A stretch of DNA of 22,205 nt from Clostridiales bacterium (GTDB taxonomy: Bacteria > Bacillota > Clostridia > DUOD01). The stretch lies in contig DUOD01000018.1 in NCBI GenBank assembly GCA_012838995.1, positions 1 through 22,205 of the forward strand. The letters run 5' to 3'. The position numbers were made by a program, and so were the translations under genes. The notes beneath the pieces are model-generated. The model made no database searches and was not told where the DNA came from. It saw only the letters and a list, made by a program, of their open reading frames with translations. This document shows, one piece after another, positions 176 to 22,205 of the stretch; the stretch's first letter is position 1, and each line of letters begins with the position of its first letter.

Positions 176-1168
176 ATGAGCAAAATTAAGTACAGCGCCA
201 TTCTCGGTTCGCTAGGACAAACCTATGATCGTTTTATGAGATGCGGCTATAAAGATCCGGCCGTAGACAAGGTAGAATTCCCCGATATCGTAAAGAACTT
301 GGAAAAAATAGGAGTTTTACAAGGTGTGGACTTGTACCAGGCACCAACCGGTCCCCTTTCTGATCCGGATACAGTAAATGAAATATTGACCAAATCCGGC
401 TTTGTTTGTTCATCAGTTCTACCTTTAGTATTCGGTGAAAGAAGATGGGCAAAAGGATCCATTTCCGCAGCCGATCCTGAAACACGTAAGCAGGCTATGG
501 AACTTTTAAAACAGAACATCGATTTTAATGCTAAGTTAGTGGGCAATCCCAGTGTTAACCTCTGGCTGGGCCAGGACGGTTTCGACTATCCCTTGCAGAC
601 AGACTATGCAAAACAATGGGATTACCTCATTAAAGGCGTAAGGGAATTGGCAGACTACAATCCTAACGTTAAATTGACGCTGGAAGGAAAAATCCGCGAG
701 CCCAGAAATCGTTGTCTGGTAGACACTACATACACAGCACTGCTTATGTGCATGGAAATAGACAGACCCAACGTAGGTGTGGCTATAGATACCGGACACG
801 TGTTCCAGTCTCAACAAAACGTTGCACAGGATATAGAAGTTGCCGCACGATACGGAAAGTTATTTATGGTACATGCCAATGACAACTACAACATGTGGGA
901 CGACGACCTCATCGTAGGATCCTTGAGGATAACAGAATATATTGAAATGTTCTACTCCTTGAGAAAAGTCGGATATGACGGCTTCATTTCAGTAGATATC
1001 TTCCCCTATCGAGAAGATCAATACGAAGCAACCAAGCAGAGCGTACTTAACATGAAGAAATTCGACGAAGCAGTTGACTTGATAGGATTCGAAAAACTTG
1101 GGGAACTGATAGAAGAAGGCGATCCGTGCAAGATTACGGAAGCAATCCGCGAAGCAGTATACAAATAA
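176..1168 (+). CDS. Xylose-isomerase-fold (AP endonuclease 2 / XI-like TIM barrel) sugar isomerase/epimerase, substrate unknown
   Basis: 330-aa ORF with ATG about 10 nt after AGGAGG. The segments LEGKIREP, AIDTGH, HANDNY..WDDDLIVGS and VDIFP resemble the metal-binding strands of XI-fold sugar isomerases. Confidence 0.75.
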   Translation: MSKIKYSAILGSLGQTYDRFMRCGYKDPAVDKVEFPDIVKNLEKIGVLQGVDLYQAPTGPLSDPDTVNEILTKSGFVCSSVLPLVFGERRWAKGSISAADPETRKQAMELLKQNIDFNAKLVGNPSVNLWLGQDGFDYPLQTDYAKQWDYLIKGVRELADYNPNVKLTLEGKIREPRNRCLVDTTYTALLMCMEIDRPNVGVAIDTGHVFQSQQNVAQDIEVAARYGKLFMVHANDNYNMWDDDLIVGSLRITEYIEMFYSLRKVGYDGFISVDIFPYREDQYEATKQSVLNMKKFDEAVDLIGFEKLGELIEEGDPCKITEAIREAVYK

Positions 1169-1206
1169 ACGTTGACCGAAATATCCTTTAAAAAGGAGGA
1201 ATAGCT

Positions 1207-1566
1207 GTGATCAAGAGGAAAAACAGATATTGCTTTGTAATCGAACTCAACGAAGATCAAGTGGACGACTACGTAGAACTTCACAAAAATCCCTGGAGGG
1301 AAACCCTTGAAGGCTTAAAGGCAGCAGGGGCCGACGAACTGTTGATATACAGGTATAAAAACTTTTCCATTCTCTTCTATGAGTGCGATGATATAAACGA
1401 AGTGTATAGAAAATGGGGTGCAACCGAAACTTGTAAGAAGTGGAATGCAAGGCTTGCAAAGGCTTACAAAGTTACGCCCAGCATCGACGGCTCCGATGAT
1501 GTAGAAACCCTTGAAAAGATCTTCGACTTAAATCAACAATTAGCGGGCAAACTGGAACAATACTAA
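1207..1566 (+). CDS. rhaM: L-rhamnose mutarotase (RhaM/YiiL) family protein
   Basis: 119 aa with a GTG start 7 nt after AAGGAGG. The pattern HKNPWRE..L..AG...LIYR......LFYE......W.....CKKW matches my recollection of E. coli RhaM (HNPIWPE...AIYL...LF...E..W...C.RWW). Confidence 0.7.
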   Translation: MIKRKNRYCFVIELNEDQVDDYVELHKNPWRETLEGLKAAGADELLIYRYKNFSILFYECDDINEVYRKWGATETCKKWNARLAKAYKVTPSIDGSDDVETLEKIFDLNQQLAGKLEQY

Positions 1567-1680
1567 AGACGCTGCCAAAGGATTCCCTTTGCGCTTAAAG
1601 ACGGGCATAGCCCTATGCTCAAACCGGTTTTGAACATTGTAAATCTTTTAATAAAAAAATAAAAAAACGGAGGGAATGAA

Positions 1681-2826
1681 ATGAGTAGTAAGGTCTATGT
1701 AGAAGACACTTCCATTAAGGGAAGGGTAGAAGAGATTAACATTAAGGTTGAGAGGGTTAAAAAATTACTAGAAGAAGAAAACCTGGATGCCCTTTATCTC
1801 ACCAGAATTCCTAACTTCTTCTGGATCACTGCAGGCGCCGACCCGGTAGTTACCATCTGTACTGAAGATGCTGTTGCACACGCTTTGATCACAAAGGATG
1901 GTAAGAAATACGTTATAACAAACGCAATTGAAGATGACCGAATGGTAGAAGAACAGAAGCTTGAAGAGCTGGGCTTCGAAGTTCTAACACAAAACTGGTT
2001 CGAAAATAAAAATGCTGAATACATCAAGAAAATAGTGGGCAGCTTGAGCAAAGTTGGCTGTGACATGCACTTTGAAGACACCAAGATGATTGCCGACAAG
2101 ATAGCTCCATTGCGCTGGTCATTAACTTACAACGAAATTTGCCGATACCAGTATCTGGGAGACTATATGTCTGAAGCATTGGAAAAATGTCTGGCCACAG
2201 TAAAACCCGGCATGACCGAATTTGAGGTTACCGGTATAGTAGCAAGGGCATTATGGCCGCTGCAAATAGGACAGACGTTGTTCCTAGTTGCATCCGATGA
2301 GCGATTAACATATCGTCATCCTGTTCCCAGTACCAAGAAAATAGAAAAATGCTTTATGGTATCCTGCAACGGTAGGTACAAAGGCCTTATCACAACAGTA
2401 ACAAGAATGGTTTACTTCGGCAAACCTCCTGCAGAACTGCTTGAAAAATACGACAAGAACATTGATCTGGAAAACAAGATAATAGCTGCTACCAAGCCCG
2501 GAGTAGACGAAATTGTACCTTTCAATGTGTGCAAGAAAGGATACGAAGAAGCAGGTTATCCGGAAATGTTCTACAAGCATGCTCAGGGCGGTCCCATGTG
2601 CTACTACAACAGAGAATACTGCACATCCGAAGCAATTCACAATGTAACACAAGTGAACACCTGCTACTGCTACAACCCTGTACTGAACGGAACAAAGACA
2701 GAGGACGCATTTATCGCAACAGAAGACGGACCATTGTTTGTAACAAAGCCATTCAGCTTCCCCAAGATAGTGAAGACTGTAGATGGCATTACCATGGAAC
2801 GTCCTGGAATGCTGGTAATAGACTAA
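1681..2826 (+). CDS. M24 'pita-bread' fold protein (creatinase/prolidase-like) with a non-canonical active site
   Basis: 381 aa with a GGAGGG RBS. It has a creatinase/prolidase-type N-domain plus a C-terminal M24-like core. By-eye alignment to the prolidase motif D.G..Y..Y.SDiTRT gives SCNGRYKGLITTVTR, so both Asp ligands are replaced. Confidence 0.7.
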   Translation: MSSKVYVEDTSIKGRVEEINIKVERVKKLLEEENLDALYLTRIPNFFWITAGADPVVTICTEDAVAHALITKDGKKYVITNAIEDDRMVEEQKLEELGFEVLTQNWFENKNAEYIKKIVGSLSKVGCDMHFEDTKMIADKIAPLRWSLTYNEICRYQYLGDYMSEALEKCLATVKPGMTEFEVTGIVARALWPLQIGQTLFLVASDERLTYRHPVPSTKKIEKCFMVSCNGRYKGLITTVTRMVYFGKPPAELLEKYDKNIDLENKIIAATKPGVDEIVPFNVCKKGYEEAGYPEMFYKHAQGGPMCYYNREYCTSEAIHNVTQVNTCYCYNPVLNGTKTEDAFIATEDGPLFVTKPFSFPKIVKTVDGITMERPGMLVID

Positions 2827-2845
2827 TATCAAATAAGCTTGGTGT

Positions 2846-3017: not shown

Positions 3018-4178
3018 ATGGTGCAAAAGGATATAGAATATCCCAGGATACATCTTTCATTAGATAACTGTTTTGCTATAAAAAGATGGGTAAGACCAAG
3101 GGATTGGATGGAAGTTGTCAAAGAGATCGGAGGAATAACCAAAATACAGGCAAGTACTGACAATGAGATCGATCCCCTGTTTAATACGCCTGCATATCGA
3201 GATGAATGGGTTAGTGAAGTGCAAGAGTGCGAAAAATCACTGGGGCTTAAGGTAGTTAGCCTATATTCGGGCTATGCTACATACAGGACAACGGGGTTAG
3301 GCCATTGGGACGACAGTTGCCGGGAGGAAATAATAAATCGTTATTTTAATCCCGTAGTTGATGTAGCTAAAAAACTAGGTGCCCAAGTAGGGAACACGTT
3401 GGGTGCGTTTTCTGAGCCGGTGCTTGATGATCCGGAGCAATATTACAGTACCGAAGCCATACTACTTGAAAAGCTTGCAAAAATGACAAAGTATGCCCAT
3501 AACAACGGAGTGGTATTCAGTTATGAACAAATGTACACACCCAACCAAGGTTTCTGGACTATAGAAGGTTGTTTGGGCTACATGAAGAAAGTATATCAGA
3601 CCTCTAAGTGTCCCATGTACATAACCATAGACACTGCCCATCAAGTTGGACAAAGATTTTTCCTACCACCGAACGAACAAGAAATAAAAGAAATGATTTC
3701 TTCTAAAGATGCAGGCAAATTTAGATTGGGCAAAAAGATTGAAACAATGCTTTCGGAGGGAAGGGCTACTTTAACGGACATAAAAAAAGAATTGGAAGCT
3801 CGATCCTATATGTTCAGTCGGCCGGAAGACAGTGATGTATATGCTTGGTTCTCAAAACTAGGCTGTTATTCACCTCTTGTACACTTACAACAGACCGACG
3901 GTACATATTCAGGACATAAGCCCTTTACCGAAGAATACAATGCCACGGGCATAATAAAGCCCAAGGAAGTTTTGAAAGCCATAGCTCAATCATATGAAAC
4001 GGACGATCATCCGGATATGCCTCCAAAGGTAAAGGATATATATTTAAGCTTTGAGATATTCTTTGGAATTACCGACAGTCCTAAGAAAATTATAAAGGAT
4101 TTAAAGGAATCGGTGGCTTTCTGGAGAAAGGACATTCCGGAAGACGGCCTGCCCTTAAATGAGCTGCTGTCTTTATAA
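3018..4178 (+). CDS. Second xylose-isomerase-fold TIM-barrel protein (sugar or sugar-phosphate isomerase/epimerase), substrate unknown
   Basis: I prefer the ATG at 3018 (GGGAG RBS 7 nt upstream) over the TTG at 2961 in the ORF track. IHLSLDNCFAIKRW, ITIDTAHQ and VHLQQTDG resemble XI-fold barrel strands. At 386 aa it is longer than typical family members. Confidence 0.65.
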   Translation: MVQKDIEYPRIHLSLDNCFAIKRWVRPRDWMEVVKEIGGITKIQASTDNEIDPLFNTPAYRDEWVSEVQECEKSLGLKVVSLYSGYATYRTTGLGHWDDSCREEIINRYFNPVVDVAKKLGAQVGNTLGAFSEPVLDDPEQYYSTEAILLEKLAKMTKYAHNNGVVFSYEQMYTPNQGFWTIEGCLGYMKKVYQTSKCPMYITIDTAHQVGQRFFLPPNEQEIKEMISSKDAGKFRLGKKIETMLSEGRATLTDIKKELEARSYMFSRPEDSDVYAWFSKLGCYSPLVHLQQTDGTYSGHKPFTEEYNATGIIKPKEVLKAIAQSYETDDHPDMPPKVKDIYLSFEIFFGITDSPKKIIKDLKESVAFWRKDIPEDGLPLNELLSL

Positions 4179-4223: not shown

Positions 4224-4315
4224 AAAAAATAAAAATTTAAATAAAAGAAGGAATTTTAAAATTTGTGTAGAATATAAATAGACAAATGATATTATAGTTA
4301 GAACATATGTAAACA
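4224..4315 (+). promoter_or_regulatory. Repeated promoter-like module, copy A (orphan: no ORF of 60 aa or more follows on this strand for ~940 nt)
   Basis: An A-rich upstream tract is followed by GAAGGAATT (4247-4255), an 11-nt spacer and GTAGAATAT (4267-4275). The conserved inverted repeat ACAAATGAT-N11-AACATATGT lies at 4282-4310. The module is near-identical to copies at 10199-10267 and 10330-10400. Confidence 0.5.
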
Positions 4316-4886
4316 GAACAGTGCGCCACAAGTTAAGTTTTGGAGAATACCGGCGCGCTAAAAAGCCTATTACCAATGGTATATCGCTCTTTGAAAACTG
4401 AATATTTTGCATAAAGCCTTTAAGCTGAAAAAATTTGTGCTTCATCAAATTGTATGCGCCAAAATTAGCCGTAGTTGCCTTAGTATATGCCCTTTTAAGA
4501 ATTTTAGCAGAATATATACCGGATGAAGTGCTTAATATTTTAGATGCTAAAAAAGCTTATAAACATCATGCGGAAATTGATTTTGAATAGCTGTAAGTAG
4601 CATGCATACTGAATAGCAAAATCCACAGTAACTGTAAAGCATTTTAGGAGCACGTTTATATCACTTTTACAATAAAAACAGTTCAACCCCTTATTACATG
4701 ATAAGTTACAGAGTAACATTTAAACCAAATAAATATAACACAAGTACCTAAGTCGACCCTAAAGTATTAGCTATGCTCTATTTACAGCTCTTCTCATTAA
4801 TTAAAGTATTTTAAGTTAGCTGTAGACATAAAATGCAAAATAGTATACTTTATTAATGAAATTTTTAAAGAAGACGGTAGCAGAAA

Positions 4887-4915
4887 GAAGGATTTTTGAA
4901 ACTTATGTAGAATAA
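4887..4915 (+). promoter_or_regulatory. Repeated promoter-like module, copy D (candidate promoter of the ABC-transporter operon)
   Basis: GAAGGATTT (4887-4895), an 11-nt spacer, then GTAGAATAA (4907-4915). It lacks the downstream inverted repeat seen in copies A-C and lies ~340 nt upstream of the SBP start codon. Confidence 0.45.
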
Positions 4916-5256: not shown

Positions 5257-6360
5257 ATGAACAAGAAAAAAATCTTTGCAGTGCTGATGTGTCTTGTCTT
5301 GGTAGCAGTTTTTGCGCTGACAGCATGTGGAACACCTGCTGAAGAGACACCATCCGAGACACCGGCTCAAGAAGAACCGGCTCAAGAAACTCCGGCTCAA
5401 GAAGAACCGGCAGAAGAGGCACCTACAGCTGAAAGCGACGAACAATTCGAAATAGTTATGATAGCTAAGACCGAAGGTCTGGCTTGGTTCGACGCTATGA
5501 AACGAGGTGTCGCAGAATTTAACGACGATTTTGCTGATGTAAATGCTTACCAGCATTCGCCGGAAGGAGCCGACGCTGCAAAGCAGGCCGCAATGATTGA
5601 AGACTACATTGCAAAGGGCGTTGACGCAATATGCTGCGTACCTAACGATCCCAAGGCTTTGATACCTGTTGTTCAGAAGGCTAAAGAAGCCGGCATAGTA
5701 GTCGTAATCCATGAAGGCGAAGACCTTGCAGGCATAGCTGACTGGGACGTTGAAGTATTTGACAACTATGAATTCGGTCGAGTTATGGGTCAGAAGTTGG
5801 GTGAAGCAATGGGCGGCAAAGGCAAATACGCTGCTAACGTTGGCGGTCTTACCATGCAGACCCATATGCAATGGTGGCAAGGCGGTACAGACTATATCAA
5901 GGAAAACTTCCCTGATATAGAACTGGTTAATGAACAGCCTTACGAAGACCAAGACGACGCTGCAATTGCCTACGACATCTGCAAAGAAATCCTCAGGGCT
6001 CATCCCGACCTGAACGGGTTCCTCGGATGTACTGTTGAATCAGGTTCATCCATGTGCCGTCTCTTGAAGGAAACTAACAACAAGAACGTTAAGGTTTCCT
6101 GCTTGGCAGTACCGTCCGCTCTTGGCGAATACATCAAAGAAGGCTGGTGCGCTAACGGCCAGGGTAACTCACCTATCGATGCCGGTTATGCAACTGTAAT
6201 GTGTGCATACAAGGTGCTCAAGGGTGAAACCATCGAAGAAGGCAGCACCGTTGACCTTGGCAAGCCAGGAATGGATAACTGCAACGTCAAAGATGGAGTT
6301 ATCAAAGGAGATGCAACAATTATATTCACTCCGGAAAATGTAGACCAATACGATTTCTAA
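5257..6360 (+). CDS. Sugar ABC transporter substrate-binding lipoprotein (type I periplasmic-binding fold, CUT2 / RhaS-LsrB-RbsB-like)
   Basis: AAGGAGG RBS. The signal peptide carries lipobox LTAC (Cys24) and is followed by a PAQEE-type low-complexity linker. The PBP core includes IVMIAKTEGLAWFDAMKRGV and GVDAICCVPNDP. Confidence 0.85.
   Translation: MNKKKIFAVLMCLVLVAVFALTACGTPAEETPSETPAQEEPAQETPAQEEPAEEAPTAESDEQFEIVMIAKTEGLAWFDAMKRGVAEFNDDFADVNAYQHSPEGADAAKQAAMIEDYIAKGVDAICCVPNDPKALIPVVQKAKEAGIVVVIHEGEDLAGIADWDVEVFDNYEFGRVMGQKLGEAMGGKGKYAANVGGLTMQTHMQWWQGGTDYIKENFPDIELVNEQPYEDQDDAAIAYDICKEILRAHPDLNGFLGCTVESGSSMCRLLKETNNKNVKVSCLAVPSALGEYIKEGWCANGQGNSPIDAGYATVMCAYKVLKGETIEEGSTVDLGKPGMDNCNVKDGVIKGDATIIFTPENVDQYDF
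5362..5421 (+). repeat. Four copies of a 15-nt imperfect tandem repeat encoding the (P-A-Q-E-E/T) lipoprotein tether
   Basis: ccggctcaagaagaa / ccggctcaagaaact / ccggctcaagaagaa / ccggcagaagaggca read directly. Confidence 0.8.
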
Positions 6361-6377
6361 AAATATGAAGAAGACAT

Positions 6378-6440: not shown

Positions 6441-7943
6441 ATGGGTTCTTTAATATTAGAGGCAAAAAATTTGTATAAATCTTTTGGTGCTGTGCAGGCT
6501 CTAAAAAACGTAAGTTTTGAGGTGGCGCCTGCCGAAATACATTGTCTAGTTGGTGAAAACGGCTCAGGAAAGTCTACATTTGTAAAGACCGTTGCCGGTG
6601 TACATCCACCGGATTCGGGTGAAATAATACTAAACGGCAACTCCTATCCTAAGGTTAACGTTAGAGAGGCCATAAAGGAAGGTATTCAGGTAATTTACCA
6701 GGACTTGTCACTGTTTCCTTCCATGACCGTGGCGGAGAATATTGCAACCAATAGGATGATAGCCGAAAACAGGCGTTTTATTAATTGGAAAGAAATAAGG
6801 GAGATTGCTGCGAAGCAGCTAGAAAGAATAGGCGTTTCTTTGGATTTGGACGAAGCCGTAGAAAATTTATCCGTTGCCAATAGGCAACTTGTAGCCATTT
6901 GTAGGGCACTAAGTCTGGATGCAAAGCTGATTTTCATGGACGAACCTACAACGGCATTAACCAAAACCGAAGTTGACAGGCTCTTGAATATAGTTTTGGA
7001 TCTAAAGAGCAAGGGCATTTCGGTTGTCTTTATAAGTCATAAACTTGATGAAGTTATGGAAGTAGCCGATTTGGTTTCCATCTTTAGAGACGGTGAAAAA
7101 GTTGGTGACTTCCCAAGCTCTGAAGTAAACGAAAAAATGCTGGTTTACCACATGACCGGACGAAAGGTCGAATATCCGAGATATAACAGAACCTATAAGG
7201 ATGACACACCGGTACTGGAAGTGAAAAATCTTACCAGCAACGGTAAATATGAGGATGTAAGCTTTACGGTAAGAAAAGGGGATATATTGGGATTGACCGG
7301 ACTTCTGGGAGCCGGAAGGACGGAACTGGCCTTAACCCTTTTTGGTCTGAATCCACAAGATTCAGGAAAGATTATATTGGAAGGAAAGGAACGAAAGTTC
7401 ACTACACCCTATCAAGCAATTAAATCCGGAATATCCCTGGTTCCGGAAAACAGACAAACTCAGGGCTGTTATATGAACAAGAGTATAACCGATAATGTTG
7501 CGGCCCCGATATTGGATAGGATGGCAAATGGTGGGGGCGTATTGAATGTCAATAAGATGAAGGAGCATGCAGAGGATACCGTAAAGACACTTAGGGTGGT
7601 TACAGCGGGTATATCCACTGAACTCCAGAATTTATCCGGTGGTAATCAACAGAAGGTAGTATTGGGCAAATGGATTGGAACCAATCCCAAAGTATTGATT
7701 CTTGACTCTCCTACGGTAGGTGTTGACGTAGGATCGAAGGAAGAAATTTACCAGCATATACAGAAATTCGCAGCACAGGGAACTGCGGTAATCCTGATTT
7801 CTGACGAAATACCGGAAATACTTGCTAACTGTAACAAACTAATCGTTATGAAAAAAGGAAAAGTCGTTGGTCGTTTAGAAAGTGACGATCTAAATGTTGC
7901 TGACGTTAGAGACAGAATTCACGCATTAATGGATTCAAATTAA
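6441..7943 (+). CDS. Sugar ABC transporter ATP-binding protein with tandem ABC domains (RbsA/RhaT-like, CUT2)
   Basis: 500 aa. Walker A is GENGSGKST, the second domain has GLLGAGRTE, the signature is LSGGNQQK, and Walker B sites are IFMDEPT and LILDSPT. Confidence 0.9.
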   Translation: MGSLILEAKNLYKSFGAVQALKNVSFEVAPAEIHCLVGENGSGKSTFVKTVAGVHPPDSGEIILNGNSYPKVNVREAIKEGIQVIYQDLSLFPSMTVAENIATNRMIAENRRFINWKEIREIAAKQLERIGVSLDLDEAVENLSVANRQLVAICRALSLDAKLIFMDEPTTALTKTEVDRLLNIVLDLKSKGISVVFISHKLDEVMEVADLVSIFRDGEKVGDFPSSEVNEKMLVYHMTGRKVEYPRYNRTYKDDTPVLEVKNLTSNGKYEDVSFTVRKGDILGLTGLLGAGRTELALTLFGLNPQDSGKIILEGKERKFTTPYQAIKSGISLVPENRQTQGCYMNKSITDNVAAPILDRMANGGGVLNVNKMKEHAEDTVKTLRVVTAGISTELQNLSGGNQQKVVLGKWIGTNPKVLILDSPTVGVDVGSKEEIYQHIQKFAAQGTAVILISDEIPEILANCNKLIVMKKGKVVGRLESDDLNVADVRDRIHALMDSN

Positions 7944-7960: not shown

Positions 7961-8986
7961 ATGAAATCTAATGCTATCAAGAAATTTTTCAGTAAAACAG
8001 AAGGCTATATTCTGTTGATAGTAATAGTGTACTGTATTATCGTAGCCGCTGTAAACCCCAACTTTATGACCCCAGGCAACTTCCTTGACCTAATCCGTTC
8101 GTCATCCTGGTATTGGATATTGGGATTTGGTGTGTTGCTGGTGTTACTTTCGGGGGGGATAGATGTTTCATATACGGCTATAGCTATTTGTAGTGGATAT
8201 GTATCTGCTTGTGTTATTCAGCGTACGGGAATAGAGAACCTGGCCTTTGCCTTCTTTATTGCAATTTTAATAGGCCTTTGGTTCGGCGCTATTAACGGAT
8301 TTTTAATACACTACTTTAGGCTGCCTACCCTTATTGCAACTTTAGGTACAAAGACAATTTTTATCGGTATTATGGCGGCGCTTGTAGGTGTAGAAGCTAT
8401 AAATACAGACCACTTACCCGCTGTATTTAAGGATTTCGGTTTGGCAAAACTATTCACTGTACCAACTGAAACGGGTGCGGAATACGGCCTTTCGGTATTC
8501 TTTATTCCACTGGTGATCTTAGGTATATTAACGTGGTTTATACTGTATCGCACTCAAATCGGTAGGAGCGTCGTTGCCCTTGGCAATTCGGAAGTATCGG
8601 CCGAGCGTGCGGGCTACAACCTGTTTAAGACTCGTATGTTTATATATATGTACGTAGGAGCCTTAGCCGCCGTGGCAGGTGTAATTGCCATTTCAGACGT
8701 TGCTTGGATTGCACCTCTCTCAAGTACAATGATACGAGGAACCGAGCTGACCATTATTGCAGCATTAATTATAGGCGGTGTAAAGCTGACAGGTGGAGAA
8801 GGTACGGTATTTGCTTCGATTATTGGATTGTTACTTGTAAGACTGTTTGAAACAACACTCATATTCCTCGGATTAACTTCATCATGGCAGAACTTCTTTA
8901 CCGGATTGGTATTCGTAGCCAGCTTGTCGGTGACATCGCTACAGAGGGCAAGAAAGAGACGTCGTATGCTCTTATTTGAAGAATAA
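7961..8986 (+). CDS. Sugar ABC transporter permease (RbsC/RhaP-like)
   Basis: 341 aa, AGGGGAG RBS and a multi-TM hydrophobic profile. The GGIDVS motif is typical of CUT2 permeases. Confidence 0.85.
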   Translation: MKSNAIKKFFSKTEGYILLIVIVYCIIVAAVNPNFMTPGNFLDLIRSSSWYWILGFGVLLVLLSGGIDVSYTAIAICSGYVSACVIQRTGIENLAFAFFIAILIGLWFGAINGFLIHYFRLPTLIATLGTKTIFIGIMAALVGVEAINTDHLPAVFKDFGLAKLFTVPTETGAEYGLSVFFIPLVILGILTWFILYRTQIGRSVVALGNSEVSAERAGYNLFKTRMFIYMYVGALAAVAGVIAISDVAWIAPLSSTMIRGTELTIIAALIIGGVKLTGGEGTVFASIIGLLLVRLFETTLIFLGLTSSWQNFFTGLVFVASLSVTSLQRARKRRRMLLFEE

Positions 8987-9002
8987 TGGGGGTAGACTAG
9001 TT

Positions 9003-14460: not shown

Positions 14461-15792
14461 ATGGCAAAAAGTTTTTATGATAGGATTTTTGATGCAGGAG
14501 TCATAGGAGCAGGCGGCGCCGGGTTTCCTACCCACATAAAAGTAAATGCTAAAGCCGATGTGGTATTGGCCAACGGTGCAGAATGCGAGCCCTTACTAAG
14601 GGTTGACCGTCGCATAATGGAGCACTACCCTGATAAGGTGGTAGAGGGTCTCCAAGTGGCGATGAGGGTAAGCGGTGCGGCCAAGGGATATATATGCTTG
14701 AAAGCTAAGTATAAATTGGCAGTGGAACGACTACAGAATGCCATAGGCAATAAAAAGAAAATTGAGTTGTTTTTGCTGGATAACTATTATCCAGCGGGTG
14801 ACGAACAGCAGATTGTACATGAGGTTACCGGCAAAGTAGTACCTCCCGGCGGGATACCGCTGGATGTAGGAGCGGTGGTGTGCAACGTAGGTACCTTGGT
14901 CAATATAGCAGATGCAGTTGAAGACATCCCGGTGACCCATAAATTAGTTACAGTTACCGGTGAGGTAAAAAACCCCATTACAATAAAGGTGCCGGTGGGA
15001 ACGCCCATGAAGCTACTGATAAAGGAAGCCGGCGGTCCCGATGAAGGCCAAGGATATGCATTAATAGAAGGCGGGCCGGCCATGGGCAAGGTCCAGGAGG
15101 ACTGGTCATCACCCGTTAAAAAGACTACCGGGGGACTGATAGTACTTCCGTCCAACCATTTGGTTATAAGGAAGAAAGAGGGACCCTCGGAATCGGATTA
15201 CAGACTGACCAAATCGGTATGCTGCCAATGTAGTTATTGCACTCAACTGTGTCCAAGGAACAACATAGGATTGGGTGTACAACCCCATAAGGTAATGAGG
15301 GGTATAGGATACGGCAGAGGTGATGCAATAGGCAATATAAATGACGTATTTTCATGCTGTGACTGCGGATTATGTACCTATTATGCCTGCTACATGGGCC
15401 TCAAACCGGGTACCATGGTTACCACCATTAAGAATGCCCTTCTCAAGAAGGGAATAAGACCGCAGAAAGAAAGAGTAAAAGAAGTTAATCCGGCATGGGA
15501 ATACAAAAAGGTGCCAACCGAAAGATTTATTCAGAGACTTGGGTTGAGCAAGTATGACGTCGATGCTCCTATGGTGGACAAAGAAATCGCTGTAGATAAG
15601 GTAAGGATCCCTCTCAAACAGCATATTGGTGTACCGGCTACACCGGTGGTTGAAGTGGGAGCGGATGTCCAGGTCGGTGATCTAATCGGTGCGGTTGAAA
15701 AAGACAAGGTAGGGGCTAATGTCCATGCCAGCATAGATGGCAAAGTCACCTTTGTTTCCAAAGAATTAATTGAAATTTCTGCAAGAGGGTAG
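14461..15792 (+). CDS. pduS: PduS-like / RnfC-family flavo-iron-sulfur oxidoreductase
   Basis: 443 aa with an AAGGAG RBS. The nucleotide-binding region is GAGGAGFPTHIK...ANGAECEPLL. Two Cys clusters are present, CCQCSYCTQLCP and CCDCGLCTYYAC. The C-terminal segment IPLKQHIGVPATPVV..GD.V.VGDLIG resembles an RnfC barrel-sandwich domain. Confidence 0.8.
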   Translation: MAKSFYDRIFDAGVIGAGGAGFPTHIKVNAKADVVLANGAECEPLLRVDRRIMEHYPDKVVEGLQVAMRVSGAAKGYICLKAKYKLAVERLQNAIGNKKKIELFLLDNYYPAGDEQQIVHEVTGKVVPPGGIPLDVGAVVCNVGTLVNIADAVEDIPVTHKLVTVTGEVKNPITIKVPVGTPMKLLIKEAGGPDEGQGYALIEGGPAMGKVQEDWSSPVKKTTGGLIVLPSNHLVIRKKEGPSESDYRLTKSVCCQCSYCTQLCPRNNIGLGVQPHKVMRGIGYGRGDAIGNINDVFSCCDCGLCTYYACYMGLKPGTMVTTIKNALLKKGIRPQKERVKEVNPAWEYKKVPTERFIQRLGLSKYDVDAPMVDKEIAVDKVRIPLKQHIGVPATPVVEVGADVQVGDLIGAVEKDKVGANVHASIDGKVTFVSKELIEISARG

Positions 15793-15804: not shown

Positions 15805-16350
15805 ATGGATGCATTAGGAATGATTGAAATAAATAGTGTAGCAGCTGGTATAGAAGCCGGAGACGCAATGTTAAAGACTGCAGGGGTTACTTTGGTTAAC
15901 GCGCAGCCGGTATGCGCGGGCAAATATATTGTGACCGTTCAAGGTGCTGTTGCGGAGGTTACCAGTTCTGTCAACGCAGGAAAGGAGAGCGCCGGAGATT
16001 CTCTGGTAGACAGCTTCATTATACCCAACGTACACCCCCAAGTGTTTTCAGCATTAGCCTGTGCTTCGGATATAGATGTCGACAATGCCGTAGGAGTAAT
16101 AGAGACATTCTCATTGTCTGCCTGTGTTGTAGCTGCTGATGCTGCCGTTAAAGCAGCTGAGGTTGATCTGCTGGAAATAAGACTTGGGATGGGGCTCGGC
16201 GGCAAATCCTTCGTAATACTAAGTGGAGACGTAAGCGCAGTTAGACATTCCGTTGAATCAGCCGAAAGCAGTATCGGAATAGAGGGGTTGGTAGTACGTA
16301 CTGTTGTTATACCTTCACCCCACAAAGATATTGTTAAGGCTTTGATATAG
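15805..16350 (+). CDS. pduT: Tandem-domain BMC shell protein (BMC-T), PduT-like, with the candidate Fe-S-ligating Cys
   Basis: 181 aa with two BMC domains, [22 protein letters not shown] and [22 protein letters not shown]. Cys37 in PVCAGKY aligns with TICPGKF (Cys38) of Salmonella PduT as I recall it. Confidence 0.8.
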
Positions 16351-16387
16351 ATACCCAATATTAATGCGTGAGGTGATGAAGCAGGTT

Positions 16388-16669
16388 ATGATCAAAGAAG
16401 CATTAGGTATGGTTGAAACAAGAGGTTTAGTAGGAGCTATAGAGGCTGCCGACGCCATGGTTAAAGCGGCAAGTGTCAAACTAATAGGCAAAGAAAAGGT
16501 AGGCGGTGGACTGGTTACCGTAATGGTAAGAGGTGATGTTGGAGCGGTAAAGGCAGCCACCGAAGCCGGAGCAGCAGCTGCAAAAAGGGTTGGCGAGCTT
16601 GTATCCATGCACGTTATTCCAAGGCCTCATAGCGATGTGGATGGCATTTTACCAAAGGCATCTGTGTAA
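16388..16669 (+). CDS. BMC-H hexameric shell protein (PduA/EutM-like), pore motif KVGGGL
   Basis: [25 protein letters not shown]...[21 protein letters not shown]...VHVIPRPH. I chose the start at 16388 by analogy with the PduA N-terminus. In-frame ATGs at 16364 and 16376 cannot be excluded. Confidence 0.85.
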
Positions 16670-16889: not shown

Positions 16890-17186
16890 ATGATTGATAA
16901 GGAAGCATTAGGTATGGTTGAAACAAGAGGTTTAGTAGGAGCAATTGAGGCTGCTGACGCTATGGTAAAAGCAGCAAACGTAAGATTGATAGGAAAGGAA
17001 AAAATAGGCAGCGGTCTCGTAACCGTTATGGTAAGAGGCGACGTTGGAGCAGTTAAGGCATCCACCGAAGCCGGTGCTGCAGCTGCAAAAAGGGTTGGAG
17101 AACTTGTATCCGTACACGTCATCCCAAGACCTCATACAGATGTTGAGCAGATTCTGCCCAAGGCAACTTGCAGCGATAGCGAATAA
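16890..17186 (+). CDS. Second BMC-H hexameric shell protein (PduA-like), pore motif KIGSGL
   Basis: I prefer the ATG at 16890 (AAAGGAGA RBS at 16873-16880) to the track start at 16830. It is about 80% identical by eye to the upstream paralog and shares an identical 41-nt DNA block with it. Confidence 0.9.
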
Positions 17187-17443: not shown

Positions 17444-17496
17444 CAAACTCGATAAAGTAGATACAATCTATATACAAAAGGGTGATTGATTTGGAA

Positions 17497-18279
17497 ATGG
17501 ACAAACTTATAGAAAAACTAACCGAAGAGATATACAAAAAAGTATTGGGTGAAATTCAAAAAACCGGAAGTTTTGACAGTATTCCTGTTAGCACTCCCAG
17601 TGGCGGGGATCGTGGTCTAGCCAGCATGATAGATCATACCCTTTTAAAGCCCGACGCAACCGTGGAAGATGTTAAAAAAGTATGCGAGGAAGCAAAACAA
17701 TACGGATTCGCGTCCGTGTGCATAAACCCCGGATATGTACCCTTGGCAGTACAAACACTGAGGGGAAGTAATGTAAAAACTTGTACGGTAATAGGTTTTC
17801 CCTTGGGAGCTACAACCACAAAGACAAAGGTTGAAGAAACAAAAGAGGCATTAGAAAACGGTGCCAAGGAAATTGACATGGTAATAAATGTGGGTGCTTT
17901 AAAATCCGGCGATATAGATCTCGTAAAAAATGATATAGAAGAGGTAGTAATAGCAGCCAAAGGTAGAGGAATTGTTAAAGTTATCATAGAAACTTGCTTG
18001 TTAACCGATGACGAAAAGGTAAAGGCTTGTACAATAGCCAAGGCAGCTGGAGCGGATTTCGTAAAGACTTCTACAGGCTTTAGCACCGGCGGCGCAACGG
18101 TAGAAGACATTAAATTAATGAGGGAAGTAGTAGGGCCGGACATGGGAGTTAAAGCCTCTGGAGGTATCCGTGATTACGAGACTGCTATGGCGATGATAAA
18201 TGCAGGGGCCAATAGAATCGGAGCCAGCGCTTCAGTGGCTATAGTAAACAAACAAAAAACATCTAAAAAAGGTTACTAG
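17497..18279 (+). CDS. deoC: Deoxyribose-phosphate aldolase family class I aldolase (DeoC/DERA) with a ~40-aa N-terminal extension
   Basis: I prefer the ATG at 17497 (AAGGGTGA RBS) to the GTG at 17482. The core starts at [12 protein letters not shown]. The Schiff-base region DFVKTSTGF and VKVIIET are present. The extension reads [40 protein letters not shown]. Confidence 0.85.
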
Positions 18280-18302: not shown

Positions 18303-19364
18303 GTGGCTCAAAAAATGAGAGCAGTTAGGTTGTTTGCCCCTGGCGACGTAAGGTGTGTAGAAGTTGATATTCCAAAAATCGAACAGCCTGATGATGTAAT
18401 AGTAAAGGTAAAGTCCTGCGGAGTATGCGGGTCTGATATAGCACGAGTTATGGAAAAAGGTGCCTATCGATATCCTATTACCATAGGTCATGAATTTGCA
18501 GGCGAAGTAGCGGAAGTAGGCAGTGACGAATATGGCATAGAAGTGGGAGACAGGGTAGCTGTAATGCCCCTTATACCCTGTGGCAAGTGTAAGTACTGCG
18601 CCATCGGCGAGTTTGTGTTGTGTGACGAGTATCAGTACTACGGTTCTCGAATTGACGGTGCCATGGCCGAGTACATCAGGGTAAAGGCCCACAACATTTT
18701 GAAAATGCCCTTAGGCGTGGACTATGAGGCCGGATCCATGGTTGATCCCACATCTGTAGGGCTCCATGCAGTGAGAAAGACCAAAATAGAGCCCGGCCAA
18801 AGCGGCGTGGTTTTTGGTTTGGGACCCATCGGTCTCATCACCATGCAGTGGTTAAAGGCTTTAGGCTGTGATAAGGTATTTGCCGTTGATATTTTCGATG
18901 ATAAATTGGATTTAGCTGACCGACTGGGTGCAGATTATTGCATTAACGGCAAGAAACAGGATGCAGTAGAAGCAATAATGGAATTAACCTCAGGCGAAGG
19001 TGTGGATATATCTATCGAACTGGCAGGAAGTATAATTACCCAGGATCAAGCTATACGAGCAACTAAAAAGATGGGTACAGTAGTTTACTGTGGTATTTCT
19101 TATGACGACCTTGTTTTATCCAACGCTACAGTAAACAGGATTTTAAGGGGAGAGCTGACAATTAAGGGTTCTTGGAATTCTTCCATTGCACCGCTACCCA
19201 TCAATGAATGGGAAAGCTCACTTAAATTTATGAAAAACGGTAAGGTGAAAGTAAACCCGCTGATATCACATAGATTTAGGCTGGAAGAATGCCAAGAGTG
19301 TTTCAACATGATGTACCATAAAACCGAAGTGTTTAACAAGGTACTGTTTAAACCCGAGGACTAA
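18303..19364 (+). CDS. Zn-dependent MDR-family dehydrogenase (sorbitol / threonine / galactitol-1-P dehydrogenase-like)
   Basis: GTG start 6 nt after GGAGGG. Catalytic motifs are CGVCGSD and GHEFAG, the structural Zn site is CGKCKYCAIGEFVLC, and the Rossmann motif is VFGLGPIGL. Confidence 0.8.
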   Translation: MAQKMRAVRLFAPGDVRCVEVDIPKIEQPDDVIVKVKSCGVCGSDIARVMEKGAYRYPITIGHEFAGEVAEVGSDEYGIEVGDRVAVMPLIPCGKCKYCAIGEFVLCDEYQYYGSRIDGAMAEYIRVKAHNILKMPLGVDYEAGSMVDPTSVGLHAVRKTKIEPGQSGVVFGLGPIGLITMQWLKALGCDKVFAVDIFDDKLDLADRLGADYCINGKKQDAVEAIMELTSGEGVDISIELAGSIITQDQAIRATKKMGTVVYCGISYDDLVLSNATVNRILRGELTIKGSWNSSIAPLPINEWESSLKFMKNGKVKVNPLISHRFRLEECQECFNMMYHKTEVFNKVLFKPED

Positions 19365-19418: not shown

Positions 19419-20456
19419 ATGTTAGCTTATGTATATGACGAGCAAGGAAAATTGTCGCTAAAGGATATGCCCCGTCCTACTGCTAAAAATAATACAGCCG
19501 TAATAAAGGTTGGGGCCTGCTCCATATGCGGTACGGATTTTAGAACATATATGCACGGTAGCAGTAAAATTACACCGCCTAGGATCATTGGCCATGAAGC
19601 CGTAGGAACGATAGTTGAAGTAGGCAGGGATGTTATCGGATTCAGTAAAGGCGAAAGGGTTGCCGTTGCCCCCGCTATTGGATGCGGGGAATGTTACCCT
19701 TGCCAAAGCGGTTATCCCAATATGTGCGATGACCTTCAAACGATAGGCTTTCAATTTGACGGCGGCTTTGCGGAATATATGGAAATCCCCGAAATAGCCT
19801 TTAAGATGGGTAATGTAAATAAACTAGGCAGCTTAATCAGCGATGAAGAAGCCAGCCTTGCAGAACCCACGGCTTGTGTGGTAAATGCCCAGGAGTTTCT
19901 GAATATTAAGAAGGGCGATTACGTGGCCGTATTCGGATCAGGATTTATTGGCTGCATGCATGCCGAACTTGCATTTAGGAGCGGGGCTTCCAAGGTGATT
20001 ATAATCGAGGTTTCCGAAAAGAGAATAAAGCAGGCCGAGGAACTTGTTCCCGGAATTATTACTATAAATTCGACGGAAAAGGATCTTATGACCGAAATAA
20101 TGGACATAACCGAGGGAAGAGGAGTAAATGTTGCAATAACGGCATGTTCAGTCGGCAAGGTCCAGGAAGATGCACTGAATATCGCTTCTAAAAGGGGAAG
20201 GATAAGCCTGTTTGGAGGAATCCCCGGCAGTGGCAAGGGATATATCGACAGTAACGTTATACACTACAAAGAACTGTCGGTGTACGGCGTTCATGCATCA
20301 ACACCTCTCCAGAACAAGAAAGTATTGGACTGGATATCCACGGGCAGTTTGAAGGTGGACAAATATGCAAAAAATATTTATCCCCTAAGGGATATTGAAA
20401 AGGCCTTTGAAGCAATTAAAGGCGGGGACGTTTTAAAGGCAATCATCAAGCCATAA
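19419..20456 (+). CDS. Second Zn-dependent MDR-family dehydrogenase (polyol or sugar-phosphate dehydrogenase-like)
   Basis: Motifs CSICGTD, GHEAVG, CGECYPCQSGYPNMC and VFGSGFIGC. Confidence 0.8.
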   Translation: MLAYVYDEQGKLSLKDMPRPTAKNNTAVIKVGACSICGTDFRTYMHGSSKITPPRIIGHEAVGTIVEVGRDVIGFSKGERVAVAPAIGCGECYPCQSGYPNMCDDLQTIGFQFDGGFAEYMEIPEIAFKMGNVNKLGSLISDEEASLAEPTACVVNAQEFLNIKKGDYVAVFGSGFIGCMHAELAFRSGASKVIIIEVSEKRIKQAEELVPGIITINSTEKDLMTEIMDITEGRGVNVAITACSVGKVQEDALNIASKRGRISLFGGIPGSGKGYIDSNVIHYKELSVYGVHASTPLQNKKVLDWISTGSLKVDKYAKNIYPLRDIEKAFEAIKGGDVLKAIIKP

Positions 20457-20510
20457 AATAAACAGGTGTAAAGGCATTATAATTATGATTAAATGGGGGT
20501 TTGTTAATCA

Positions 20511-21992
20511 ATGGAAAAATTTCTAATATTTGACCTTGGGGCCGGTAGCGGCAGGGCAATAGTTGGGGATTTTGATGATAACAAAATTTCCTTCGAAGAA
20601 ATTCATCGTTTTGACAACCGCCCGGTTTATGCTGCGGGAGAATTATTCTGGGATATACTACGCCTTTACTCGGAAATTAAGAGAGGAATAGAAATTTGCA
20701 GCAAGAAATACGATAATGTACGTTCACTGGCAATCGATACCTGGGGATGCGATTTCGGGCTAATAGACAAAAACGGCAGGCTAATTTGCAATCCTGTAAA
20801 TTATAGGGACAGGAAGAGACATGAACGTGCCGAAAAGCTTCATGAAATAATACCAGAAAAGGAATTATTCCAACTATCCGGCGGACCGCTGGATAGGATA
20901 ATGGGTATTTACCAGTTGTTTTCACTGAAATATGAAAATGCCGTTGAATATCAAAACGCCCATAGACTCCTCATGATACCCGATATTTTCAACTATTTCT
21001 TGACTGGAGAGGCAGTTAACGAATTTACCAATGCTACAATGACCCTCATGTGTAACCAGAATGAAAGAAAGTGGGAAGATAAGATAATATCCAAATTGGG
21101 CTTTACAAGGGAAATTTTCTCAGACCTTAATGAGCCCGGAGTTGTTATTGGGAAATTAACTAAATCCGTATGCGATGAGCTGAGCACCCAAGCTATTCCG
21201 GTTGTCTTACCTCCCACCCACGATACCGCATCTGCTGTAGCAGGCATTCCCGTGGCCGACTACAATAAACCTTGGGCCTTCATAATTCTGGGCACCTGGT
21301 GTATAGGCGGAATAGAAACTTCTGCTCCGGTAATTAATGACAAGGTACTGGAATCAGGATTTGGAAACGAGGGCGGAGTAGAAGGAAAGAACATGCTGCT
21401 TAAGAATACAACGGGTATGTGGCTCAAGCAGCAGTGTAGAGCATCCTGGATGAAGTCTGCCCAGAGGGAGATTTCCTGGGAGGAAATTAACCAGGCAGCA
21501 AACAGCGCCCAGTCTACAGATTCCTATATAGATGTGGACGAAGAGCGTTTCGGCAAGGTTCAGCCTGATATGCCGGGCGTAATTGCCGAGTATTGCAGAG
21601 AAACGGGCCAGAAAGTTCCCTCAACCATGGGTGAAATTACCCGATGTCTCAATGAAAGCCTTGCACTGAAGTTTAGACATAATCTAACCATGCTTCAGGA
21701 ATTTAGCGGCCAGAAACTTGAAGTCCTACATCTGGTTGGTGGAGGAATTAGGGATGAGCTATTATGCCAGCACATAGCCGATGCTCTGGGCATAACAGCC
21801 ATTGCCGGACCTACAGAAACTTCATCTGCAGGCAACCTAATATTCCAACTCAAGGCCGGTGGATACATTAAGGGCGTACAAGAGGGAAGAAAGATATGCA
21901 GGAATTCCTTTGAAATTAAGGAATACGAGCCCCATGACACCGATGTGTGGGACGAGAAGTACGAGAAGTATTTGAAGCTGTTGGAAAGGTAA
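20511..21992 (+). CDS. FGGY-family carbohydrate kinase, rhamnulokinase-like
   Basis: 493 aa. The N-terminus FDLGAGSGRAIVG...EIHRFDNRPV...LFWDILRLYSEIKRGI resembles RhaB-type kinases. The C-terminal motif is GGGIRDELLCQHIADALG. Confidence 0.75.
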   Translation: MEKFLIFDLGAGSGRAIVGDFDDNKISFEEIHRFDNRPVYAAGELFWDILRLYSEIKRGIEICSKKYDNVRSLAIDTWGCDFGLIDKNGRLICNPVNYRDRKRHERAEKLHEIIPEKELFQLSGGPLDRIMGIYQLFSLKYENAVEYQNAHRLLMIPDIFNYFLTGEAVNEFTNATMTLMCNQNERKWEDKIISKLGFTREIFSDLNEPGVVIGKLTKSVCDELSTQAIPVVLPPTHDTASAVAGIPVADYNKPWAFIILGTWCIGGIETSAPVINDKVLESGFGNEGGVEGKNMLLKNTTGMWLKQQCRASWMKSAQREISWEEINQAANSAQSTDSYIDVDEERFGKVQPDMPGVIAEYCRETGQKVPSTMGEITRCLNESLALKFRHNLTMLQEFSGQKLEVLHLVGGGIRDELLCQHIADALGITAIAGPTETSSAGNLIFQLKAGGYIKGVQEGRKICRNSFEIKEYEPHDTDVWDEKYEKYLKLLER

Positions 21993-22088
21993 TAAACGTT
22001 GTATAAAAGTCCCGACGAAGCTTCCATAGTATAAATGTTTGCATGGGTTTTAAAATAATTAAAATATTATGCGGAGGTGCTTAGTATT

Positions 22089-22205
22089 ATGAAGGACAAA
22101 ATGAAAGCTGCAGTGTTTGAGGGCGAAGGAGTATTGAAGATTAAAGAAGTCGATGTCCCCAAGATCGAGAAAGCCGACGAACTGATCGTAGAGGTAGAAA
22201 TGTGC
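22089..22205 (+). CDS. Third Zn-dependent MDR dehydrogenase, 5' fragment truncated by the window end
   Basis: ATG 9 nt after GGAGGTG. The 39 codons read MKDKMKAAVFEGEGVLKIKEVDVPKIEKADELIVEVEMC, a typical MDR N-terminus ending at the catalytic-Zn Cys. Confidence 0.7.
   Translation, partial: MKDKMKAAVFEGEGVLKIKEVDVPKIEKADELIVEVEMC

Follow-up and report, generated by a model that had tools for sequence, protein, structure and literature searches.

SPU (sugar-phosphate-utilizing) metabolosomes are bacterial microcompartments (BMCs) in which a deoxyribose-phosphate aldolase (DERA) and an aldehyde dehydrogenase (AldDH) are encoded among the shell genes; they were named in 2014, comprised more than 280 loci in 2021 and had their DERA characterized in 2024 (PMC4207490, PMC8217296, PMC11585597). 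They are among the most widespread BMCs, their physiological substrate has yet to be demonstrated, and 2-deoxyribose 5-phosphate (dR5P) from DNA is the only published model. In other organelles, PVM, PVM-like and GRM5, it is the C–C cleavage step of fucose and rhamnose catabolism that is already enclosed; the PVM class II aldolase metabolosomes for these two sugars go back to Erbilgin 2014, as recounted in passages of PMC8217296 and PMC8156839. We analyzed a 22,205-nucleotide stretch of DNA from a Clostridiales bacterium (contig DUOD01000018.1), hereafter the window, which is the complete contig C68 (22.2 kb) of a metagenome-assembled genome (MAG) of 1.92 Mb in 70 contigs, 98% complete with 0.05% contamination. 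The window, whose genes all lie on the + strand, is the main locus of an SPU-type metabolosome, most like the SPU4 subtype. This type of organelle is already known; the variant described here has two aldolases, is split into a main and a satellite locus and comes with a co-regulated sugar front end, and the SPU literature examined does not treat such a connection with an imported sugar.

Gene families were called with Pfam and NCBIfam profiles, and equivalog status was judged against the curated cut-offs. These profiles bear out the gene inventory of the initial annotation, which had listed an importer in RhaSTPQ order, a RhaM-type mutarotase, a rhamnulokinase-like kinase, xylose isomerase-fold (XI-fold) proteins and a BMC with a DeoC-type enzyme.

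The window encodes the core of an SPU-type metabolosome

The microcompartment operon starts with a SorC-family regulator (10422..11381; PF04198, 228 bits), followed by the phosphotransacylase PduL (11384..12022; PF06130, 247.6 bits), a 240-residue BMC-associated protein (12042..12764; weak match to TIGR02536, 28.7 bits), a CoA-acylating AldDH (12972..14429; NF011927, 667 bits against a cut-off of 403), a PduS-like flavoprotein/Fe-S oxidoreductase (14461..15792; PF01512, PF13375, PF13534 and PF10531), a PduT-like BMC-T with tandem BMC domains (15805..16350; PF00936 twice) and two BMC-H (16364..16669, and 16830 or 16890..17186; PF00936, 102 bits each), to which the gene calls in L095 and L096 give lengths of 93–101 residues for the first and 98 residues for the second. 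The DERA gene (17482..18279) lies 296 nt downstream of the BMC-H and is a deoC equivalog (TIGR00126, 297 bits against a cut-off of 117). DERA, AldDH and PduL each carry an amphipathic N-terminal helix with a linker. The 240-residue protein has weakly similar counterparts directly after PduL in locus L191 (28% identity) and just upstream of AldDH in locus L017 (22%).

This gene set contains what characterizes an SPU locus: a DERA (pfam01791) among shell genes, its N-terminal extension, an AldDH (pfam00171), and a shell complement made up of the two BMC-H and the BMC-T of the window and a triplet of BMC-P on contig C9. The gene order of the core matches that of the SPU loci L016 and L017. A phosphotransacylase and PduS together with a single-layer BMC-T, and no BMC-Tdp, form a pattern common to SPU1, SPU4 and SPU7, from which SPU4 was chosen because of the Firmicutes context and the relatives found. 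An RpiB-type isomerase (pfam02502), listed as an SPU locus gene by Sutter 2021 (PMC8217296), has no place in the locus; the only copy in the genome is on contig C7 and would lack a long extension, since its open frame is 154 residues for a model of 138 positions. This does not exclude membership in the SPU group, because Dwyer 2024 (PMC11585597) reports that the ribose-5-phosphate isomerase (RPI) is lacking in every SPU5 locus and in 11 of the 29 loci of SPU4.

SPU4 loci, represented below by the one of a Blautia-like organism (L186/L189/L190; the proteins of the L186 contig cluster with those of chicken-gut Candidatus Blautia MAGs), share with this system the tagged DERA as the aldehyde source and the N-terminal extensions of AldDH and PduL, as well as PduS, BMC-H, a single-layer BMC-T, a BMC-P triplet and the lack of a BMC-Tdp. 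The present system differs in that its locus has neither RPI nor the triosephosphate isomerase (TIM) whose tagged form is an SPU4 trait according to Dwyer et al. (PMC11585597), and in that the BMC-P triplet has moved to a satellite together with a tagged class II aldolase and an acetate kinase. A tagged class II aldolase is reported by the same authors for SPU5, and at low frequency elsewhere (PMC11585597).

The initial annotation had taken an encapsulated class I DERA step to be undescribed, whereas DERA is precisely what defines the SPU type (PMC4207490, PMC8217296, PMC11585597); its view that deoxyhexose-linked BMCs only use propanediol made outside the shell is at odds with the PVM, PVM-like and GRM5 organelles, which enclose a class II aldolase. 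As to these other types, the profile PF02286 for the PDU signature enzyme PduC had no match in the genome, a weak negative as the control genomes gave no match either, and no glycyl-radical enzyme is encoded with shell genes as expected of a GRM organelle: the single glycyl-radical dehydratase is on contig C46, without shell genes nearby and without a long N-terminal extension.

A satellite locus encodes the BMC-P proteins and a class II aldolase

The genome-wide search for shell genes located three BMC-P genes on contig C9 (22256-23194), in a cluster that reads iron-dependent alcohol dehydrogenase (Fe-ADH), DeoR, class II aldolase (285 residues), three BMC-P and acetate kinase (AckA). Apart from a stray 130-residue open reading frame (ORF) on contig C34 (6452-6844; L014), which shows a weak BMC domain (35 bits) and stands by a GltD-like NADPH oxidoreductase remote from shell genes, the genome has no shell genes beyond the C68 and C9 set. 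The C9 aldolase scores 181 bits with PF00596 and 67.9 with the RhaD model, below the cut-off of 170; its best PDB match is 4C24, the fuculose-phosphate aldolase FcsA of Streptococcus pneumoniae (111 bits), with which the HAH, NHG and SSE motifs align. We take these to be its metal and catalytic motifs. The C-terminus consists of a low-complexity linker and an amphipathic helix, VEDAVKRLVMEEIKK, and a C-terminal extension of this kind has been reported for BMC class II aldolases. The hallmark of the PVM type, a class II aldolase with a C-terminal extension beside shell genes, is found in this genome on the satellite rather than in the window. With AldDH and PduL in the window and the acetate kinase on C9, the lactaldehyde branch is complete.

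No class II aldolase, Fe-ADH or diol dehydratase is encoded within the 22.2-kb window; these absences are uninformative for the genome because the window is one contig of a fragmented MAG, and the class II aldolase, an Fe-ADH and the glycyl-radical dehydratase are indeed encoded on contigs other than C68. The earlier statement that RhaD/FucA and lactaldehyde reductase are missing is thereby right for the window and wrong for the genome, in which C9 provides a FucA-like aldolase and an Fe-ADH. The same annotation had named a canonical rhaD with a PDU or GRM locus elsewhere as what would refute it: the lack of RhaA, of a GRM organelle and (weakly) of a PduC match, and a FucI-family gene assigned to an arabinose route, leave it unrefuted in this respect, but its premise of a missing aldolase fails. 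One further aldolase candidate, a bifunctional aldolase/short-chain dehydrogenase on C9 (3199-5169), was rejected, as it scores 308 against a cut-off of 568 and lies outside any sugar operon.

The nearest relative of the C9 aldolase (74% identity) comes from a Mahellales MAG whose aldolase-type BMC locus is contiguous (L177); Fe-ADH (83%), DeoR (81%) and BMC-P (86%) are also shared there, and the core genes PduL, hypothetical protein, AldDH, PduS, BMC-T and BMC-H are present as well. In a second aldolase-type locus, L191, the aldolase is upstream of a core in the order PduL, hypothetical protein, BMC-P, AldDH, PduS, BMC-T, BMC-H, in which one BMC-P is the sole difference from the window. The identity between the window and the L191 core is 53–85% (28% for the hypothetical protein), about equal to the values for DERA-type loci. 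The fetched stretches of L191 and L177 contain no DERA. These PVM/PVM-like loci thus share with the present genome the FucA-like aldolase with its C-terminal extension, AldDH, PduL, acetate kinase, the BMC-P triplet and DeoR; the difference is that the aldolase stands here outside the main locus, which carries DERA instead. The genome appears, from its gene content, to unite the signature enzymes of DERA-type and class II aldolase-type BMCs, and as it holds shell genes for one compartment only, the two aldolases are predicted to be enclosed together in one organelle. This suggests that the SPU and PVM-like organelles of Firmicutes have a common modular chassis, in which aldolases can be exchanged or combined.

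In all three genomes (C9 10970-14251, L177 6806-9986 and L191 3822-8435), the BMC genes with the class II aldolase have an acetoin/pyruvate-dehydrogenase-like E1alpha/E1beta/E2 set as their neighbor, accompanied by a RuBisCO-like protein in L177 and L191. The fucose/rhamnose BMC model does not readily account for these conserved neighbors.

The sugar front end would lead to a ketose 1-phosphate

The front end comprises an importer, two XI-fold proteins, a mutarotase-like protein and a kinase. The CUT2 substrate-binding protein (SBP; 5257..6360; PF13407, 178.5 bits), whose best PDB match is 5BRA, the ABC ATPase (6441..7943; PF00005) and the two permeases (7961..8986 and 8976..10049; PF02653) follow the RhaS-T-P-Q order. 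XI1 (176..1168; PF01261, 84.8 bits) is an XI-fold TIM-barrel protein with 3KTC as its best PDB match and is probably a free-sugar aldose-ketose isomerase; homologues 75–88% identical occur across many Clostridia, next to RbsD/FucU or RhaM, ABC importers and Fe-ADH. Downstream of it are a RhaM-family mutarotase-like protein (1207..1566; PF05336, 59.8 bits), an M24 (creatinase/prolidase-fold) protein (1681..2826; PF00557 and PF01321) and XI2 (~3018..4178, with the start taken from the L099 gene calls; PF01261, 37.7 bits). XI2 matches PDB 4K3Z, the remote Brucella EryC, at 64.8 bits, and its relatives at 41–44% identity carry the JGI name D-erythrulose 1-phosphate 3-epimerase, an annotation that points to a ketose 1-phosphate as its substrate and makes XI2 a candidate EryC-like ketose-1-phosphate 3-epimerase.

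The FGGY kinase (20511..21992) has its best PDB matches in the L-fuculokinase FcsK of S. pneumoniae (4C23, 273 bits) and in E. coli RhaB (2CGJ, 247 bits), which places it in the fuculokinase/rhamnulokinase clade of ketose-1-kinases; its homologues reach at most 44% identity among 400 sampled genomes of the phylum. The kinase and the C9 aldolase both have their best solved relatives in the fucose catabolism of S. pneumoniae, FcsK and FcsA, with the reservations that the similarity is moderate, that the S. pneumoniae system has no BMC and that the window locus has no FucI/RhaA-type isomerase. There is no RhaA gene (PF06134) in the genome, and its sole FucI-family gene, on contig C17, was rejected as a canonical fucose isomerase and read as part of an arabinose route, as it adjoins the ribulokinase gene araB, with AraD encoded on contig C4. 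An Lsr/autoinducer-2 system, suggested by the combination of a SorC regulator, an FGGY kinase, a CUT2 importer, a DeoC-family protein and a small alpha+beta protein, was also rejected: LsrB, LsrK and LsrR score 62.6, 90.8 and 157.7 against cut-offs of 384, 528 and 486, and the aldolase is the deoC equivalog, not LsrF. The tetritol pathway of Brucella and Mycobacterium (EryD, EryEFG, EryA, EryC) resembles the window in its SorC regulator, CUT2 importer, FGGY kinase and EryC-related XI-fold enzyme, and differs from it in that the window kinase belongs to the FucK/RhaB clade, equivalents of EryB, EryH and EryI are missing and the similarity to EryC is remote.

The pathway that we propose builds on gene content, targeting-like extensions, shared cis-elements and recurrent synteny, all of which are observed directly. 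A 6-deoxyhexose-like sugar would be imported by the CUT2 transporter and converted to the ketose by the RhaM-like protein and XI1; the FucK/RhaB-like kinase would then form the ketose 1-phosphate, which XI2 may epimerize at C3, and the encapsulated class II aldolase would split it into dihydroxyacetone phosphate (DHAP) and a lactaldehyde-type aldehyde. In parallel, the route through deoB, purine nucleoside phosphorylase (PNP) and Pdp would supply dR5P, from which encapsulated DERA would release glyceraldehyde 3-phosphate (G3P) and acetaldehyde. Both aldehydes would be oxidized by the shared AldDH and passed by PduL to phosphate, with the acetate kinase yielding ATP and PduS or the alcohol dehydrogenases rebalancing NAD. 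The front end ends naturally at the class II aldolase because its chain consists of a mutarotase, an isomerase, a ketose-1-kinase and a ketose-1-phosphate epimerase. We give about even chances to such an organelle with two aldolases, one fed with the ketose 1-phosphate and the other, DERA, with dR5P.

With both aldolases predicted in one shell, DERA might also run in the direction of condensation, joining acetaldehyde to G3P that derives from the DHAP of the class II aldolase, so that the organelle would convert aldehyde into sugar phosphate; a similar idea has reportedly been put forward for SPU-type loci of Atribacteria. Such a scheme would be suited by the TIM of the related SPU4 locus, which bears a targeting-like helix (see also PMC11585597). 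In the present genome, however, AldDH, PduL and the acetate kinase form a complete oxidative and ATP-yielding aldehyde branch, the locus has neither TIM nor RpiB, and no fate is encoded for the dR5P formed; we regard a condensing DERA as highly improbable.

The M24 protein is one of two prolidase-like proteins of different folds in a single sugar operon, the other being an amidohydrolase-fold protein on contig C50 (414-1706; L106) that scores 245 bits with an Xaa-Pro dipeptidase model. Their co-occurrence is a hint that the transported molecule could bear an amide or some other group that is not a sugar.

DERA is orthodox

The real start of DERA is probably the ATG at 17497; its N-terminal extension of ~40 residues is made of the helix and a Ser/Gly/Pro linker. 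Alignments to the DERAs of the PDB begin at residue 45, with 294 bits to 8QPS, and both lysine motifs, VKVIxET and VKTSTGF, are conserved. The enzyme shares 60–72% identity with many untagged DERAs whose loci contain no shell genes and which are presumably housekeeping copies, and it is 85% identical to the extension-free DERA of a Mahellales MAG (L015, 1500-2465), which suggests that the window DERA gained its targeting-like helix recently. The L015 gene comes after a seemingly decayed SorC gene. In the 98% complete genome, DERA is the sole PF01791 (DeoC/LacD-family) gene, and an operon on contig C70 (~40978-45258; L176 4979-9259) encodes XerD, phosphopentomutase (deoB), PNP and Pdp, with no deoC. 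In view of the 85% identical untagged relative and of a sole DeoC-family gene alongside deoB, PNP and Pdp, DERA needs no novel substrate: judged by its sequence it is an orthodox enzyme for which dR5P would be sufficient.

The regulator points the same way, as the SorC protein is closest to DeoR of Bacillus subtilis (NF053881, 354 bits). The B. subtilis dra-nupC-pdp regulon resembles the window in this regulator and in the deoC equivalog, and differs in that the window regulator stays below the cut-off of 420 and that DERA stands in a BMC operon, with deoB, PNP and Pdp elsewhere. An orthodox, sole DERA, the presence of deoB/PNP/Pdp and a DeoR-like regulator speak for the published model for all SPU subtypes (PMC8217296, PMC11585597, PMC8156839), in which the organelle degrades dR5P from DNA and nucleoside turnover; the flanking sugar genes would then be unrelated neighbors. 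Against such a restricted function stand the kinase and Zn-dependent alcohol dehydrogenases (Zn-ADHs) inside the BMC operon, together with the same accessory genes in the distant SPU4 locus, and the regulatory elements described next.

Shared modules join the sugar genes to the microcompartment operon

A promoter-like module, AGAAGGA-N14-TGTAGAATA, occurs in four copies in the window (4246, 4886, 10198 and 10329; none expected by chance), and a palindromic box, ACAAATG-N12-GAACATATG, follows three of the four. One module with its box (4246..4309) lies between XI2 and the importer genes, the module at 4886..4914, which has no box, is 343 nt upstream of the SBP gene, and a tandem pair (10198..10266 and 10329..10399, both with box) precedes sorC, the second of the two directly. 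Elsewhere in the genome the module is confined to a tandem pair across the overlapping ends of the small contigs C6 and C50, and a looser pattern gave scattered weak matches only. The total of six is confined to one island, C6-C50-C68, the order of which was obtained from contig-end overlaps and from an independent Logan contig: C6 (with a second SorC), C50 (the amidohydrolase), a 342-residue Zn-ADH (ZnADH3) and C68. The Logan contig (L101) reads amidohydrolase, ZnADH3, XI1 and is 100% identical to the reverse complement of C50 and to C68.

Given this order, the modules head three units: amidohydrolase-ZnADH3-XI1-RhaM-M24-XI2, the ABC importer, and SorC-BMC-DERA-ZnADH-kinase. The three operons probably form one regulon under SorC-type repressors. 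A module that is unique to the island and precedes the XI/RhaM, ABC and BMC operons alike does not fit with sugar genes that are mere neighbors, and an organelle serving dR5P from DNA alone seems to us quite improbable. Two independent lines, the shared cis-elements and the recurrent synteny, tie the front end to the BMC. The initial annotation had claimed that the sugar front end feeds the DeoC BMC; the linkage stands, supported by the unique shared modules and by SPU4 synteny, while the feeding of DERA itself is retained only as a rival reading.

Between XI2 and the SBP gene, ~1 kb of the window (4180-5256) has no convincing ORF and no Rfam match, the scan of the whole window at gathering thresholds having returned zero matches; it holds two modules 640 nt apart, with a box after the first only, and could represent a leader region, a small RNA or the remains of a gene. 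Just past the second permease gene, and ahead of the tandem modules, the arms CCATCACTTTGTGATAT / ATATCACAAAGTGATGG form a perfect inverted repeat of 17 nt (10098-10141), which might serve as a terminator or as a second operator.

Gene neighborhoods in relatives and the share of DERA

Directly 3' of DERA come ZnADH1 (18303..19364), a medium-chain dehydrogenase/reductase (MDR) of polyol or polyol-phosphate dehydrogenase type (275 against a cut-off of 550 with the GatD model), the Tdh/IolM-like MDR ZnADH2 (19419..20456) and the kinase, with intergenic gaps of 23–54 nt. This arrangement speaks for the route preferred in the initial annotation, in which the XI-fold enzymes, Zn-ADHs and FGGY kinase make a 2-deoxy-aldose phosphate (dR5P or an analogue) for DERA and the class II aldolase has another or a minor role, as do the modules common to the front-end and BMC operons. 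Homologues of ZnADH1 adjoin DERA in L023 (67% identity), L186 (64%), L143 and L074 and are in the same locus in L142 (54%). In L023, from Halanaerobiales, DERA-ZnADH1-ZnADH2 recurs with SorC, an ABC importer and an intact GlpK. Across 400 genomes of the phylum, ZnADH1 is mostly found in SorC-ZnADH-FGGY polyol operons, which carry little information on DERA.

The Blautia-like SPU4 locus contains, in order, SorC, an FGGY kinase, an ABC importer, TIM (with N-terminal helix), DERA (with N-terminal helix, 61% identity), ZnADH1 (64%), BMC-H, a GFO-family oxidoreductase, XI1 (78%), a PHP-domain protein, a FucK/RhaB-like kinase (53%), ZnADH2 (53%), AldDH, a second ABC importer and SorC, and so shares with the window homologues of XI1, the kinase, ZnADH1, ZnADH2, the CUT2 importers and SorC. 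The locus must have a satellite, because the BMC-P and BMC-T genes are lacking there, and it was found in no reference genome of the family searched. The helix-bearing TIM paralogue is encoded at 5541-6329 of L186. The L186 homologue of ZnADH2 (13904-15031) has ~28 extra N-terminal residues (MEMTRTELENLVRTAVQKYM...), an extension that ZnADH2 of the window lacks, and the BMC cargo of the Blautia-like organism may thus include a dehydrogenase of polyol type. Dwyer et al. (PMC11585597) mention no kinases, transporters or Zn-ADHs in their SPU paper, and the published model of dR5P from DNA is silent on such genes and on isomerases (PMC11585597). In at least one SPU subtype, the organelle is thus firmly coupled to the import of sugars and to an aldose-ketose isomerase, an enzyme resembling ketose-1-kinases and polyol dehydrogenases, and the SBP ligand, the kinase product and the SorC effector become testable feeds for an SPU organelle.

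Several points weigh against the two-aldolase pathway. None of the rhamnose-like parts of the window reaches its own NCBIfam equivalog cut-off (RhaS 133.8 against 342, RhaM (TIGR02625) 35.3 against 99.6, RhaB (TIGR02627) 394 against 528 and RhaI 53.5 against 531). No class II aldolase is encoded within ~40 kb of the Blautia-like SPU4 locus, and the interleaving there of XI1, the kinase and both Zn-ADHs with DERA, TIM and AldDH, ZnADH2 bearing a targeting-like N-terminus, hints that these enzymes serve the DERA branch; in the Halanaerobiales locus, of which 12.7 kb were examined, the DERA-ZnADH1-ZnADH2 order is kept without any shell gene. The link between C9 and C68 consists of their common MAG bin (0.05% contamination) and of their shared closest relatives only. 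Three or four Zn-ADHs, the M24-like protein and the amidohydrolase have no role in the model, and the encapsulation of the cargo, like the substrates and the route of flux, is predicted from sequence features alone.

The chemistry and the distribution of the front end argue in the other direction. Kinases of the FucK/RhaB clade give, by established enzymology, ketose 1-phosphates, which are not DERA substrates; an aldose-ketose isomerase cannot make a 2-deoxy-aldose, and the window has no dehydratase. The DERA is as close to untagged enzymes of shell-less loci as described above, and a targeted class II aldolase that suits the kinase exists. The front-end module is also present in L183, L188 and L192, where no DERA was seen, and the M24 gene is conserved with XI1, RhaM and ZnADH3 across this set of loci. 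Outside BMC genomes XI1 adjoins Fe-ADH (L183 and L192) in a module of M24, ZnADH3 and XI1 with an ABC importer, joined by RhaM and the kinase in L183 only, and an Fe-ADH beside XI1 fits a pathway yielding an aldehyde such as lactaldehyde. On balance, a front end that supplies DERA itself appears somewhat unlikely, and we retain the two-aldolase pathway as our reading of this genome.

A broader version of the DERA-directed route would make SPU4 organelles the terminal stage of imported sugar or polyol catabolism rather than of DNA salvage, with the kinase, the XI-fold enzymes and the partly encapsulated Zn-ADHs building the 2-deoxy-aldose phosphate for DERA. We hold this to be unlikely; if true, the substrate published for a BMC type that ranks among the most widespread would not apply to SPU4, or would be only part of the answer there. 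A cluster like that on contig C46, in which a SorC-linked FGGY kinase accompanies the glycyl-radical dehydratase, might help in such a scheme by dehydrating a polyol phosphate.

The C46 cluster (1024-13431; L175) encodes an ABC-type SBP, an 818-residue glycyl-radical dehydratase, a DeoR-like SorC, a 535-residue FGGY kinase, an activase and an E1alpha/E1beta/E2/E3 set. The dehydratase scores 749 bits with the B12-independent glycerol dehydratase 1R8W and 674–687 bits with YbiW-type enzymes and diol dehydratase. The kinase beside the radical dehydratase suggests the dehydration of a phosphorylated polyol, a reaction from which the sole DERA of this genome could, in principle, be supplied with a 2-deoxy-aldose phosphate.

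Ends of the contig

Both ends of the window are made of pieces of a ZnADH3 gene. The first 36 nt (1..36, + strand) are the 3' end of ZnADH3a, with its last 11 codons and stop as given by the Logan contig L101, followed by a hairpin with an 18-bp stem (41..80) that has a terminator-like score on the - strand only. The last 117 nt (22089..22205) encode the first 39 codons of ZnADH3b, which is cut by the contig break. C68 and the reverse complement of C50 share their last 127 nt, with the 5' end of the Zn-ADH gene, and C68 and contig C42 share their first 127 nt, with its 3' end and the hairpin, so that C68 appears to be flanked by two copies of the 342-residue Zn-ADH gene. Downstream of the second ZnADH3 copy and of a second CUT2 importer, C42 carries a glycerol kinase gene (6743-8239; L105) in two ORFs of 313 and 157 residues; it has an in-frame stop, as a tblastn search with an intact GlpK passes through in one frame at 65% identity. 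All fetched public assemblies of the species likewise break just after the kinase gene, and recombination between direct repeats of ~1.2 kb on either side of the BMC island could remove the whole island.

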